IMG/VR virus record: IMGVR_UViG_3300042386_001493
Location: 22,252-86,251 of that record
Reading direction: 5' to 3' (one strand)
DNA length: 64,000 nt
Origin: a virus
Lineage: Duplodnaviria > Caudoviricetes
Shown here: positions 42,961 through 49,775 of the stretch, piece by piece
Position numbering within the stretch: the first letter of the stretch is position 1
Layout: each line of letters begins with the position of its first letter
The notes under the pieces: model-generated
What the model was told of the DNA's origin: nothing
What the model saw: only the letters and a program-made list of their open reading frames with translations
The model's database searches: none
Program-made: the position numbers and the translations under genes

Positions 42961-42982
42961 ATTCTAGCAGGGGGGTCTGACA
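42961..42982 (-). promoter_or_regulatory. TGTCAG-N10-TANNNT promoter (PafBC/RecA-NDp-like)
   Basis: Minus strand reads TGTCAG acccccctgc TAGAAT. Confidence 0.65.
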
Positions 42983-43010
42983 ATTTAGGGGGGTTATTTG
43001 CTAGGCTCAC

Positions 43011-43026
43011 TGTGATTTGTCTCACA
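43011..43026. promoter_or_regulatory. CRP/GlxR-like palindrome
   Basis: TGTGA tttgtc TCACA, a perfect consensus match. Confidence 0.65.
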
Positions 43027-43216
43027 TTTACTTGCTAGGCTCACGCCCCTAAATAATTCTATATTTAATTTTCTATAATGGAATTATAGCAGGGATAAGC
43101 CCAAAAGTCAACACGACACGCCGTTAATAACACGCATGTAATTAGTGATATGCACCACACGACATATCGGACATATCGGACATGCAGCCCGGCTCGGTCG
43201 GGTGTGTCTGAGAGGG

Positions 43217-43281
43217 TTATCCACATGACGTAGATCACATACCTATTTCACGCTCAAGTTATCCACATGACCTACATCACA
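43217..43281 (+). promoter_or_regulatory. Two DnaA boxes, each overlapping a CRP-like site (duplicated unit)
   Basis: TTATCCACA at 43217 and 43259, each continuing as CATGA-N6-TCACA. Confidence 0.65.
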
Positions 43282-43321
43282 AGACACAATGTCCGTTTTG
43301 TACTACTTACTGGTGAGTAAA

Positions 43322-43343
43322 TGTCAGTGGTCGCTGTTATACT
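43322..43343 (+). promoter_or_regulatory. TGTCAG-N10-TANNNT promoter
   Basis: TGTCAG tggtcgctgt TATACT. Confidence 0.65.
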
Positions 43344-43391
43344 TCTAGTATAAAGAAAGTTAAATAAAGGTTATTTAACAGAAAGGACAAA

Positions 43392-43499
43392 ATGAAAGAT
43401 TTTGTTAAAAAGTTAGAATTAGAAAACTATCTTGATGAAAGTCAAGATGAGTTAAGTCTAAGACTAGATGAGTTAATCGCTCTTGGTTCATATAACTAA
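43392..43499 (+). CDS. 35-aa acidic peptide
   Basis: GAAAGGA SD; MKDFVKKLELENYLDESQDELSLRLDELIALGSYN. Confidence 0.55.
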   Translation: MKDFVKKLELENYLDESQDELSLRLDELIALGSYN

Positions 43500-43603
43500 A
43501 TATAAAAAAAATCCTAGTGAGCCTTACTAAAAAAGTAAGCAAATAATCTAGGTCAAGGAAAAAGATAAACACAAGGTTTATCGCTTAAAGAAAGGAATTC
43601 AAA

Positions 43604-43777
43604 ATGAATTCACTAAAAAATAAAGTGTGTAAGCATACACCTAATAAAAATGCTATCTCTATCCATCAGGATATGAAATATACTTTCTGTGAGAATTGCG
43701 AAAGCAATATCTACTCTCACTATATTGAGGACAATGACTTAATGTCTTATTGGTCTTCATGGAAGGTAGGTAAATAA
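43604..43777 (+). CDS. Small Cys/His protein
   Basis: GAAAGGA SD; C.H...C..C pattern. Confidence 0.55.
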   Translation: MNSLKNKVCKHTPNKNAISIHQDMKYTFCENCESNIYSHYIEDNDLMSYWSSWKVGK

Positions 43778-43882
43778 ATGTTTTCTACAATAAAACTAAA
43801 TTGTCGCATATGTGATGAACCTATTTATAGCGTTCATTTTGATACGCAAGACATAATCACTTGCTCAAATTGTTGGGAGTAA
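43778..43882 (+). CDS. 34-aa zinc-ribbon peptide
   Basis: CRIC...CSNC, abutting the previous stop. Confidence 0.5.
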   Translation: MFSTIKLNCRICDEPIYSVHFDTQDIITCSNCWE

Positions 43883-43883
43883 A

Positions 43884-44006
43884 ATGCTTAACGAAATAAA
43901 AAATAAAATAATTCGTATTCAAGAATTGCGCCGTAGTAATGCGGCAACACCAATTCCAAATAAAAAAAAATATAGTAGAAAGGTAAAACATAAAAATGCA
44001 AAATGA
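43884..44006 (+). CDS. 40-aa very basic peptide
   Basis: MLNEIKNKIIRIQELRRSNAATPIPNKKKYSRKVKHKNAK. Confidence 0.55.
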   Translation: MLNEIKNKIIRIQELRRSNAATPIPNKKKYSRKVKHKNAK

Positions 44007-44173
44007 AAATATAACTAAGCAATTTGAAAACGCAGTTGAATTAACTAATTTAACCGAAGCGCAATTAGAAATTGTTAAACAAATTTTATTAGATAAATTT
44101 AACTAATAAAAAATTTTTGCAGAAATAAAAACTCTGCAAAAAACCCGGCTCCCCTGGCGTGTCGTCCACAGCC

Positions 44174-44221
44174 TGTGGATAAACCTGTGGATAACTTACG
44201 TACGATGTGATTTTTCTCACA
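44174..44221. promoter_or_regulatory. Two DnaA boxes plus a CRP-like palindrome
   Basis: TGTGGATAA at 44174 and 44186; TGTGA tttttc TCACA at 44206. Confidence 0.65.
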
Positions 44222-44262
44222 CAGTTTGAGCGTCTTATTATTTGAGATTACTGGCTAGTAGG

Positions 44263-44291
44263 TTGTAAATGTCTGCTAATTCTGCTAAACT
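44263..44291 (+). promoter_or_regulatory. Promoter with TGTCTG-N10-TAAACT and TTGTAA -35
   Basis: Read directly from sequence. Confidence 0.55.
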
Positions 44292-44333
44292 TACAGAGTA
44301 AGAAAATAACAAAAAAGAAAGTAGGTAGCAAAA

Positions 44334-47767: not shown

Positions 47768-47840
47768 GGGGCATATGGAGATACTAATAGTATTATCACT
47801 TATATTCTTATATATCCTATTCTCAGGCATGGGGCATTAG

Positions 47841-47871
47841 TGTGATGTATCTCACATCTCAATATATGAGA
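47841..47871. promoter_or_regulatory. CRP-like palindrome abutting a TCTCA-N5-TGAGA palindrome
   Basis: TGTGA tgtatc TCACA + TCTCA atata TGAGA; the same pair recurs at 49052-49082. Confidence 0.6.
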
Positions 47872-47951
47872 TTATCCATGAGATAATTTGTATTTTTGAC
47901 CAAAAAATGTTAGACTTATACAGTAAGCAAAAACCAACAAGAAGGAGAACC

Positions 47952-48122
47952 ATGTCCGTATCAAACGCAACATACAAGGTAGGCGACACCTACACATCAC
48001 AAAAATCAAAGGTAGTAGGAACTATTACCGAAATTGTGCCAACTAACAAAAACACAGTTAGAGTTAAGTTAGATGTTAATGGCTCAACTCGCTGGACAAC
48101 TTGGACAGCAAAGAACGCTTAA
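47952..48122 (+). CDS. 56-aa SH3-like protein (paralog of 48712..48882)
   Basis: TYKVGD.YT......GTI..I.P.....RV.L..NG; AAGGAG SD. Confidence 0.65.
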   Translation: MSVSNATYKVGDTYTSQKSKVVGTITEIVPTNKNTVRVKLDVNGSTRWTTWTAKNA

Positions 48123-48141
48123 TCTTAGCCTAGTGGCTAAA

Positions 48142-48168
48142 GTCCTGAGCATGACGAGAAACTGCTCA
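48142..48168 (+). ncRNA. Conserved pseudoknot motif, copy 2
   Basis: gtc-ctgagcat-gac-gagaaac-tgctca. Confidence 0.65.
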
Positions 48169-48207
48169 ACTCAAAAGCCCCACTAACAGAAATGGAAACC
48201 CATCACA

Positions 48208-48630
48208 ATGGCAAGAAGCAAACCCATCAGCGTAAAAATCGCTACTGCTAAGGTTATTACAGCCTTAGAAAATAGATTAGCAGAGTTAGAGGCTAACTAT
48301 AAAACACAAGACGAGAACGAAGCAAAGTTCCAAGTCGCAATAGAGGCTTGGAAAAAAGAACTATTTGCTTTTGCTATCGCTAATGTTTCTAAGGCAGAAA
48401 ACCTACGCACTAACTATCGTCAATGGTCAAGCAACCTTAATGTTGATTTTGATTTAACAGTTAAGGAAGGCGAGTTCCCTGCTGAGCCTCAAAGAGAGTT
48501 TGAGCAACTCCATGCTCATACCTATCGTGAGCAGAAAGAGGAAATGGAAAACGCTATCCGTATCCTCAAAATGACCGACGAGGAAACAGTTAATACTAGC
48601 ACATATAACGCTATCGCAAGATACTTGTAA
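48208..48630 (+). CDS. Coiled-coil hypothetical protein
   Basis: 140 aa, helical, well-formed ORF. Confidence 0.7.
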   Translation: MARSKPISVKIATAKVITALENRLAELEANYKTQDENEAKFQVAIEAWKKELFAFAIANVSKAENLRTNYRQWSSNLNVDFDLTVKEGEFPAEPQREFEQLHAHTYREQKEEMENAIRILKMTDEETVNTSTYNAIARYL

Positions 48631-48711
48631 TAGTTTGGGGGTATTTGACTATGCCCCCAAAATATGTTAGACTAAATAAGTAAGCAACCACCACAACAGA
48701 AAAGGAAAATC

Positions 48712-48882
48712 ATGACACTAGGCGGATACACATACCAACTAGGTGATTTATTCACCACTAGTAAAACAGGCGTAACTGGTAGAATTGTAAAGTTCTCACC
48801 ACTTAACTCTAAACTTACTAGAGTATCACTACAATTAGCAAACGGCTCTCGTCGTCTTGCTATGGTAAGCACAACTAAATAA
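48712..48882 (+). CDS. 56-aa SH3-like protein (paralog of 47952..48122)
   Basis: MTLGGYTYQLGDLFTTSKTGVTGRIVKFSPLNSKLTRVSLQLANGSRR...; AAAGGA SD; not in the ORF track. Confidence 0.65.
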   Translation: MTLGGYTYQLGDLFTTSKTGVTGRIVKFSPLNSKLTRVSLQLANGSRRLAMVSTTK

Positions 48883-48989
48883 ATAATCTTGGGGTAGGTT
48901 TGTAACGTGTAATCACTTAAGTCCCTGCCCCAACCATATTTATCTCTGATAAGCACTTGGCTTAATTGCTAAGTTATTCCTGAGATAAG

Positions 48990-49018
48990 ACTCCTGAGCA
49001 TGAGTTCTAAACTGCTCA
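48990..49018 (+). ncRNA. Conserved pseudoknot motif, copy 3
   Basis: actc-ctgagcat-gagt-tctaaac-tgctca. Confidence 0.65.
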
Positions 49019-49153
49019 TCTTTTAATTGCCCCCGCAAAAATCCGGGGCAGCGTGATTTAAATCACATCTCATTATGTGAGACTAATTAAGAACTGAACT
49101 TGCATTTCCACAATCTTGATGATATTATTGTATTAACAGAAAAGGAACCCCTA

Positions 49154-49621
49154 ATGAGCGAAGTAATGACACAGGAGCAGTTATCTGTTCCATACAATCC
49201 TAACCTACTTGTTACGTACAAGTATGTTCCAGAAACATATGCAGCACCTGAAAGCCCTACATTCATGACTGATAAGGTTACTCAGATTGAATGGGACCTA
49301 CATAACGGTCGTACTACTCAAAAACAATTAGCAGAGAGACGCTTAGATATAAGTTGGTTAGAGGAACAAATTGTAGAATGGTATGACCCTAACTATACTA
49401 AAGAAGAAGTGTTGCAAGCAATCATAGAACACTTTGGGTTTAATCCAACTAAGCAAATTGAAGTTCAAGGTACCGTATCGTTCAGCGGAACGATTAATAT
49501 TCCACTGTCAGAGATTGAAGACTTTGACCTTAGCAATGTAACAATTGATGTTGATCTAAGTTCATATGAGTATGACGCAGATCTTAATGTGGACGAAGTA
49601 TCTTTGGAGGACCACTACTAA
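49154..49621 (+). CDS. Acidic hypothetical protein
   Basis: AAAGGA SD; very Asp/Glu-rich C-terminus. Confidence 0.65.
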   Translation: MSEVMTQEQLSVPYNPNLLVTYKYVPETYAAPESPTFMTDKVTQIEWDLHNGRTTQKQLAERRLDISWLEEQIVEWYDPNYTKEEVLQAIIEHFGFNPTKQIEVQGTVSFSGTINIPLSEIEDFDLSNVTIDVDLSSYEYDADLNVDEVSLEDHY

Positions 49622-49640
49622 ATTTGATAGGGGGCTATCA

Positions 49641-49670
49641 ACGTCGTGGGCCAAGACGTAAAACTGGCCC
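49641..49670 (+). ncRNA. Conserved pseudoknot motif, copy 4 (compensatory changes)
   Basis: acgtc-gtgggccaa-gacgt-aaaac-tggccc. Confidence 0.65.
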
Positions 49671-49746
49671 TAACAAAAACCCGGCCCCGCCCTAAATGTC
49701 CGATTTGTACCAATTAAGAAGATTAAACCATTTTCCCCAATCCTAG

Positions 49747-49775
49747 TTGACATTGTCAGCCATGACTGCTAAACT
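49747..49775 (+). promoter_or_regulatory. TTGACA-17-TAAACT promoter containing TGTCAG-N10
   Basis: Read directly from sequence. Confidence 0.7.

Follow-up and report, generated by a model that had tools for sequence, protein, structure and literature searches.

Introduction

Which protein directs RNA polymerase to the promoters of a small-gene block in an uncultured phage? The question is raised by a 64,000-nucleotide stretch of virus DNA, called the window hereafter, which comprises bases 22252-86251 of the 86,251-bp contig IMGVR_UViG_3300042386_001493. The contig has a G+C (GC) content of 36% and no end repeats; its completeness was 81% by CheckV, and the DNA runs containing 80-92% of the window's sampled words are labelled as lake water metagenomes. 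Six elements of the form TGTC(A/T)G-N10-TANNNT lie in it, and a preliminary description made from the letters alone had likened them to the DNA-damage promoter of the actinobacterial activator PafBC. The present analysis confirms this observation and widens it to a conserved promoter class, found in an abundant group of lake phages and in the Streptomyces BE phages. The six sites are best explained as one class of promoters for the housekeeping sigma factor of the host, made of an actinobacterial-type TANNNT -10 element, a TGn extension and a TGTCAG box that replaces a dependable -35. Judged by its sequence, the architecture of this class is that of the actinobacterial PafBC ('RecA-NDp', sigma-adaptation) promoter. 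We tentatively prefer, with confidence just short of even, the reading that these are PafBC-type hybrid promoters, which would be read with the host activator and be under dual control through the extended -10.

In mycobacteria PafBC controls about 150 DNA-damage genes, and it is conserved across Actinobacteria. Sigma domain 4 is raised from the DNA in the complex with PafBC and has no contact with it. The motif determined in vivo is tGTCgg(N10)tA(N3)T, where lower case marks conservation of at most 50%; the box, termed the '-26 element', occupies -23 to -28, and there is no -35 (PMC8635444). Residues R46 and R50 of PafB contact only two G:C pairs of the GTC triplet, sigma domain 4 is the docking site of PafC, and the GTC at recA is strictly conserved across 14 actinobacterial species (PMC8635444). 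An older consensus reads tTGTCRgtg-8nt-TAnnnT (PMC5656591). RNA polymerase carrying SigA is joined by PafBC solely on such promoters and solely when single-stranded DNA (ssDNA) is bound (PMC11804915).

Results

Six promoters with a fixed box

An exact pattern search placed the six sites at the coordinates of the preliminary description (Table 1). TGTCWG-N10-TANNNT has 8 matches in the window, compared with a mean of 1.7 in shuffled sequence, and none of 100 dinucleotide-preserving shuffles reached 8. The six sites share the layout aaaTGTCAG-N7-cTGnTAnnnT. In each of them the box TGTC[A/T]G stands at a fixed gap of 10 nucleotides from the TANNNT -10, and CTGn immediately precedes the -10, forming an extended -10. 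The intergenic position and the small genes downstream, both noted earlier, also hold for all six: each lies between open reading frames (ORFs), with 20-45 nucleotides from the end of the -10 to the start codon, and the start codons are preceded by an AAAGGA-like ribosome site. The sites span 6.8 kb in total, and those at 42982(-) and 43322(+) point outwards from a single divergent region. The site at 43322 agrees letter for letter with TGTCRGTG-N8-TANNNT. A perfect -35, TTGACA, is also present at the promoter of the DUF932 gene (49747-49752, 17-nucleotide spacer).

Both strands of the whole 86,251-bp contig were then scanned with a weight matrix covering -33 to -6 and trained on the related phages described below. 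Only the six sites (20.8-31.8 bits) and a weaker one at 46253 (17.8 bits) were returned, against 0-3 matches in each of 20 shuffles. The match at 46253 may be fortuitous, or it may act as an internal promoter of the gene at 46320. The remaining exact-pattern match, at 59631, lies within an ORF and fell under the matrix threshold. In a generic sigma-70 scan enrichment over shuffles was not found (86 vs 79.3).

After three of the six promoters (42936-42957, 43348-43367 and 45918-45931), the presumed start of the transcript carries TATAAAGAAAG, beginning 5-6 nucleotides past the -10. This sequence itself resembles a second -10-like hexamer.

Conservation in related lake phages

IMG/VR contains 488 confirmed relatives of the DUF932 protein, of which the best 80 loci (82-98% identity, 1.10 Mb) were used. 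TGTCNG-N10-TANNNT occurred 484 times in them, 440 times on the gene strand, vs 33 for a reversed control. Position 5 of the box was A in 400 of these matches, T in 42, G in 38 and C in 4. In five large relatives (104-117 kb, 96-100% complete) there were 8-13 TGTCRG sites per genome compared with 0-2 in the control, and 7-10 of them shared one strand in a single block of about 10 kb. The promoter class is conserved across at least 80 contigs of related lake phages.

An unbiased test, in which the box was not presupposed, started from 3578 unique TGnTAnnnT contexts in the relatives. TGTC was the most frequent 4-mer at -28 to -25 (239 occurrences; the runner-up had 57). These boxes comprised TGTCAG (190), TGTCTG (18), TGTCGG (13) and others (18); 221 ended in G, and position 5 was A or G in 204. 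Among hexamers on the gene strand, TGTCAG at -28 was the most enriched upstream of the -10 (168), ahead of TTGACA (64) and TTGACT (51) at -35.

The exact spacing that had been claimed proved rigid in the relatives: over 470 unique TGTCAG contexts, TANNNT followed at N10 in 268, at N9 in 5 and at N11 in 8. The logo of 308 unique sites showed an A-rich tract at -32 to -29, A at -24 (0.85), T at -22 (0.56) and the extended -10 at -15/-14 (T 0.73, G 0.80). A normal -35 accompanies only some copies, as described before; in 116 of 187 unique TGTCAG sites, agreement with TTGACA extends to no more than three of six positions. The DUF932 promoter departs from this: among 53 unique orthologous upstream regions, TGTC was present in 47 and a TTG -35 in 47, and in 3 of the 53 GGC replaced GTC.

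Fragments of the region were also present in four lake metatranscriptome runs, as contigs of related strains at 90-99% identity. Some of these contigs cross the promoters; they are neutral on transcript starts.

Comparison with recA promoters

The preliminary match to the PafBC (RecA-NDp) consensus stands, both sequence and register being in agreement with PMC8635444 and PMC5656591. The phage sites resemble PafBC promoters in the TGTC(R)G box that occupies -28 to -23 with GTC at -27 to -25, in the gap of exactly 10 nucleotides to TANNNT, in the T favoured at -22, in the apparent absence of a -35 from most copies and in the presumed SigA holoenzyme context.

Promoters of recA, where the motif was expected in candidate hosts, were collected by scanning metagenome contigs for the box 72-102 nucleotides upstream of a degenerate RecA N-terminal motif. 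The scan yielded at least 120 stretches, and DNA was obtained for 80 loci. Among the matches listed, 80 of 80 loci had the promoter match, as the scan pattern required the box beforehand (estimated chance match about 5 in 10,000 per recA gene); they gave 65 unique sites, 52 of them before an actinobacterial-type RecA. The logo of these 52 sites reads TGTC(G 0.60 / A 0.33)G-T(0.65)-G(0.75)-G(0.69)-C(0.67), with no TG at -15/-14 (T 0.15, G 0.23) and no -35. Six loci of 44-51% GC among the matches listed contributed four distinct promoter sequences, TGTCAG...TATCTT, TGTCAG...TACGGT, TGTCGG...TAATCT and TGTCGG...TATTCT, with the box 53-55 nucleotides before the recA ATG. One of the low-GC RecA proteins is identical to the NCBI entry 'MAG: recombinase RecA [Actinobacteria bacterium]', and the nearest Atlas clusters are Actinomycetota. 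TGTCAG/TGTCGG-N10-TANNNT is found at recA of low-GC Actinomycetota, which hints indirectly that the phage's host may encode PafB and PafC. The argument is drawn not from single matches but from diverged promoters in which the box recurs at an equal distance.

The phage sites differ from PafBC promoters in several respects. They front small, function-unassigned genes of a lytic-looking phage in place of DNA-repair genes. An extended -10 is present in addition, and in some sites a -35, neither of which PafBC promoters have. Position 5 is A in 85% of the phage sites vs G 60% / A 33% at recA, and the A-rich tract at -32 to -29 is a further difference.

Streptomyces BE phages and other isolates

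The same register was found in isolated Streptomyces phages of the BE type. In NootNoot, the early intergenic modules consist of a terminator hairpin, CGGACA/TGTCCG boxes and then TTGnnnn-TGTC(C/T)(C/T)-N10-TAGACT. TGTCNN-N10-TAGANT occurs 15 times on one strand of this genome and 0 times on the other (control 0 and 1). Seven sites, each present at 1.3-9.3 kb and again at 121.6-129.6 kb, account for 14 of the 15 matches, and from these coordinates the duplication is equated with the terminal repeats of about 11 kb of BE1 phages (PMC5764925). The strict TGTCRG pattern was not enriched in NootNoot (4 vs 2), the box there being TGTCCY. Coruscant has five such sites, ending in TAAGCT, and one doubtful site. 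The TGTC promoter class was not found in BillNye, Stigma (BK type), Rosebush or Grayson. In the literature on Streptomyces BE phages, no promoter analysis and no description of terminal-repeat promoters was found.

NootNoot and Coruscant are like the window's phage in having TGTC at -28 to -25, the N10 register and TG ahead of the -10. As in that phage, each promoter serves one to five small genes, CGGACA/TGTCCG boxes stand upstream, terminator hairpins are present, and DUF932 and GP88 belong to the same block. They are unlike it in that box positions 5-6 are C/T or variable, the TTG -35 is regular, the TG abuts the -10 and the host has a GC content of about 72%. The part common to both phage lineages, whose hosts differ greatly, is the base-contacted TGTC at a fixed register. 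When the 221 ORFs of window 40,000-64,000 were compared by tblastn with stretches (8.4-19 kb each) of four Streptomyces phages, the only early-region matches were GP88 and DUF932, and both are also found in the BK phages, which lack TGTC promoters. A shared TGTC register with no visible shared early protein is the pattern that a host-supplied, phylum-wide reader would predict.

In the early intergenic regions of BillNye (BK type) the TGTC class is replaced by a different repeated motif, GTGGAATGCGC-N8-9-AAGCGCAGA, which points to another promoter type in the sister subfamily, possibly with a sigma factor of the extracytoplasmic function (ECF) kind as its reader.

Gene setting, host and search for a phage-encoded reader

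Tail, head, portal, protease and class II ribonucleotide reductase genes occupy the left two thirds of the window on the minus strand. Rightwards from about 43,000 there are dozens of small function-unassigned genes together with GP88 (PF17338), DUF932, tRNA-Asp and sugar-modifying enzymes. The small-gene block is presumed to be early on two grounds: the genes that it contains, and the location of its counterpart, which in Streptomyces BE phages lies in the terminal repeats.

The hosts are Actinomycetota, the phylum suggested before. WhiB genes, treated as an actinophage marker (PMC10202952; also bioRxiv 10.1101/670067), are present in all five large relatives and absent from this incomplete contig. 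All 337 WhiB matches were phages of Actinobacteria, and in the ESM Atlas the phage WhiB matched viral WhiB clusters only. The closest isolates by portal (45% identity), DUF932 (53%) and WhiB (about 40%) are Streptomyces phages of clusters BE/BK and other actinophages, so that the nearest isolated phages all infect Actinobacteria.

The GC content of Streptomyces is about 72%. The early regions of Streptomyces BE phages have 54-57%; this phage lineage lies far under its host in GC, and the 36% GC of the contig therefore fails to fix one freshwater host clade. Saccharibacteria were considered as host through a WhiB on one 4-kb contig (63% identity) in a 0.7-Mb genome with no other WhiB; this contig is most likely a mis-binned piece of phage and was not used.

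A phage regulator that could bind the motif, which the preliminary description had named as a refuting case, was sought. WYL and Sigma70_r2 gave no match in this contig or in four complete relatives, and no helix-turn-helix, WYL or sigma family was detected in this contig and the complete relatives examined. In a complete 105-kb relative (G003), 115 of 161 predicted ORFs were scanned against Pfam, tail and head genes being omitted together with 5 ORFs that ran across segment borders, and WhiB was the sole recognisable transcription factor among those scanned. In G003 the WhiB gene and the small-gene block are on opposite strands. The part of G003 that is missing here also encodes RecA, a Cas4-like nuclease, MazG, HSP20, thioredoxin and an Fe-S assembly protein, and gives a weak proteasome-subunit-like match.

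Discussion

According to the PafBC reading, the host RNA polymerase-SigA holoenzyme would engage the -10 and the extended -10. The ssDNA-loaded host PafBC heterodimer would be added to it, with the helix-turn-helix of PafB reading the GTC of the box and PafC contacting sigma domain 4, by which PafBC would be docked. The phage small-gene operons would be boosted upon host damage or upon appearance of ssDNA from phage DNA metabolism. Basal, activator-independent firing from the extended -10, with a -35 in some copies, would give dual control. In this scheme we infer PafBC binding, inducibility and early timing. A host-supplied reader is favoured by the layout that is common to BE phages sharing just GP88 and DUF932 with the window's phage.

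Several points weigh against the PafBC reading. The likeness to PafBC promoters was a post hoc observation. The extended -10, which is not seen at host recA sites, is present in all six phage sites, and the activator may be needless. A faint -35 persists in the logo of the relatives (T 0.56 at -35, G 0.46 at -33); the DUF932 promoter keeps its TTG -35 in most orthologues and has GGC for GTC in a few, and sigma domain 4 is off the DNA in the PafBC complex. The BE phages retain a TTG -35 beside the TGTC, and their box positions 5-6 are C/T, not R-G. Many small phage ORFs have no family assignment, so a phage-encoded reader may exist, and the canonical second promoter family in the same region (see below) also fits an early/middle scheme run by a phage adaptor.

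Such an adaptor, in the style of MotA/AsiA of phage T4, is the alternative that survives best. The canonical TTGnnn-17-TGnTAnnnT promoters would supply an early protein that binds sigma domain 4 and recognises the TGTCAG box; the six sites would be middle promoters, and their likeness to PafBC promoters would be coincidence or mimicry. T4 middle promoters pair a box near -30 with an extended -10. The present sites are like them in the phage class, in the box near -30 that replaces the -35, in the adjoining extended -10 and in the canonical early promoters interspersed among them. The two families that adjoin here differ in upstream element, -10 flavour and leader, and the canonical promoter at 43111(-) stands upstream of the TGTCAG promoter 42982(-), resembling tandem early/middle promoters. 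The region also offers dozens of small early ORFs without assigned function, several with CxxC pairs. Against these likenesses, the box is the host PafBC element in sequence and in exact register, which is improbable for an unrelated protein, and a TGTCAG promoter is the sole promoter of the first rightward operon. The lack of detected WYL, sigma and helix-turn-helix families also counts against an adaptor, as does the layout in common with BE phages, whose shared GP88 and DUF932 occur as well in BK phages without TGTC promoters. T4 differs further in that no MotA- or AsiA-like gene was recognised here, the box has the sequence and spacing of a host activator's, and the host is actinobacterial. 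A phage adaptor is unlikely but to be taken seriously. The PafBC paper itself draws a comparison with T4 (PMC8635444).

It is improbable that the sites are plain strong SigA promoters for which the extended -10 is sufficient, the box being the operator of a later shut-off repressor (encoded by the phage or by its host) or a feature of the spacer that the host polymerase prefers. TGn is indeed present in all six sites, a usable -35 in some, and extended -10 promoters can function without a -35; the 'stoperator' of mycobacteriophage L5 type includes TGTCA. An operator, however, needs no exact register, whereas N10 prevails by far in the relatives, and the box is the most enriched element upstream of extended -10 sites. 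To our knowledge, neither sigma nor core contacts -28 to -23.

We give little credence to another host adaptor, a PafB-like or other helix-turn-helix factor distinct from PafBC that would read a GTC box at -26. Sigma adaptation has been proposed as widespread in actinobacteria (PMC8635444), about five WYL proteins occur per actinobacterial genome (PMC6789036), and the variation of BE phages at box positions 5-6 would suit such a factor. No second host factor with such a motif is described in the PafBC-related literature consulted, and the phage box agrees with the recA-type consensus at -24, -23 and -22. Promoters of sigma-54, ECF factors and phage RNA polymerases were rejected, since the spacing and the variable spacer misfit their usual consensus sequences and the searches revealed neither a polymerase nor a sigma factor encoded by the phage.

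It is a real possibility, somewhat on the doubtful side, that an abundant group of lake actinophages and the Streptomyces BE phages have placed the genes that they express first under the ssDNA-sensing host PafBC; this would be the first 'sigma adaptation' of a phage. No PafBC-type phage promoter was found, supplementary tables aside, in the literature on PafBC with phage (leading matches), on RecA-NDp and on BE phages. If the proposal is true, an early promoter class of lytic actinophages would depend on a host factor, and a conserved motif of hundreds of uncultured lake phages would be explained. The phage would sense host DNA damage, caused for instance by sunlight in surface waters, or intermediates of its own replication and pace the takeover by them, and the many promoter copies on replicating phage DNA might pull PafBC away from host repair genes. 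A cheap test system would be at hand, either with BE phages infecting Streptomyces or with M. smegmatis carrying reporters, and compact damage-inducible promoters could be used as tools. If the PafBC reading is wrong, the rigid -26 box would still mark an undescribed promoter class with another reader.

Other features of the region

Table 1. Promoters and TTATCCACA copies of the window (positions are those of the window)
Feature	Sequence	Position	Strand	Score (bits)	Remarks
TGTCAG-class promoter	TGTCAGacccccctgcTAGAAT	42961..42982	-	31.8	exact match; points into small-gene operon starting 42918
TGTCAG-class promoter	TGTCAGtggtcgctgtTATACT	43322..43343	+	29.5	first promoter of rightward small-gene arm
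TGTCTG variant promoter	TGTCTGctaattctgcTAAACT	44270..44291	+	20.8	TTGTAA at -35; gene at 44334 downstream
TGTCAG-class promoter	TGTCAGcgataactgaTAGAAT	44785..44806	+	29.5	gene at 44840 downstream
TGTCAG-class promoter	TGTCAGttgtatctgcTAGGAT	45894..45915	+	27.1	gene at 45941 downstream
DUF932 gene promoter, TGTCAG class	TGTCAGccatgactgcTAAACT	49754..49775	+	27.3	
Weak candidate site	TGTCTGacccaacaggTAAGAT	46253..46274	+	17.8	in-ORF; without extended -10
Second-family promoter		47896-47936			
Second-family promoter		48645-48693			
Second-family promoter		47004-47032			
Second-family promoter		43111-43083	-		upstream of 42982(-); TTGACT-17-TATAAT
TTATCCACA copy	TTATCCACA	43217-43225	+		
TTATCCACA copy	TTATCCACA	43259-43267	+		
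TTATCCACA copy	TTATCCACA	44174-44182	-		
TTATCCACA copy	TTATCCACA	44186-44194	-		

Promoters of the second family consist of TTGnnn, a 17-nucleotide spacer and TGtTAGACT or TGcTAAAAT. Two copies have in common a conserved leader, TA.A.AGTAAGCAA, and two small paralogous genes (47907-48122 and 48712-48882) lie downstream of two promoters of this family. The GP88 gene starts only 6 nucleotides past its -10, and its mRNA may therefore be leaderless.

The intergenic regions carry further repeats. AAAACCCGGC is present in 4 copies (44140, 45794, 46958 and 49676, all on the plus strand) vs 0.06 expected. Every copy opens an intergenic region upstream of a promoter and is followed by GGCGTGTCG or TGTCCG(T/A)TTTGTAC. 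This second sequence occurs at 43290, 46979 and 49697, and inverted copies, CGGACAT, stand at 43164-43183; across the 53 orthologues the box in front of DUF932 shows conservation of at least 90%. The CGGACA boxes upstream of the NootNoot early promoters resemble these CGGACAT/TGTCCG boxes.

Four of the five exact copies of TTATCCACA in the window, which we take to be the DnaA-box consensus, are found at most 1 kb away from the divergent promoter region. Two copies fall within a 24-nucleotide direct repeat, GTTATCCACATGAC(G/C)TA(G/C)ATCACA. When one mismatch was allowed, TTATCCACA was not enriched in the window (20 found vs 24.5 expected). The cluster could mark a replication origin or serve in DnaA titration.

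In the minus-strand part of the window, a 1215-amino-acid ORF (11487-15134) adjoins the portal gene and has no Pfam or PHROG match. Its position would suit a large terminase containing insertions.

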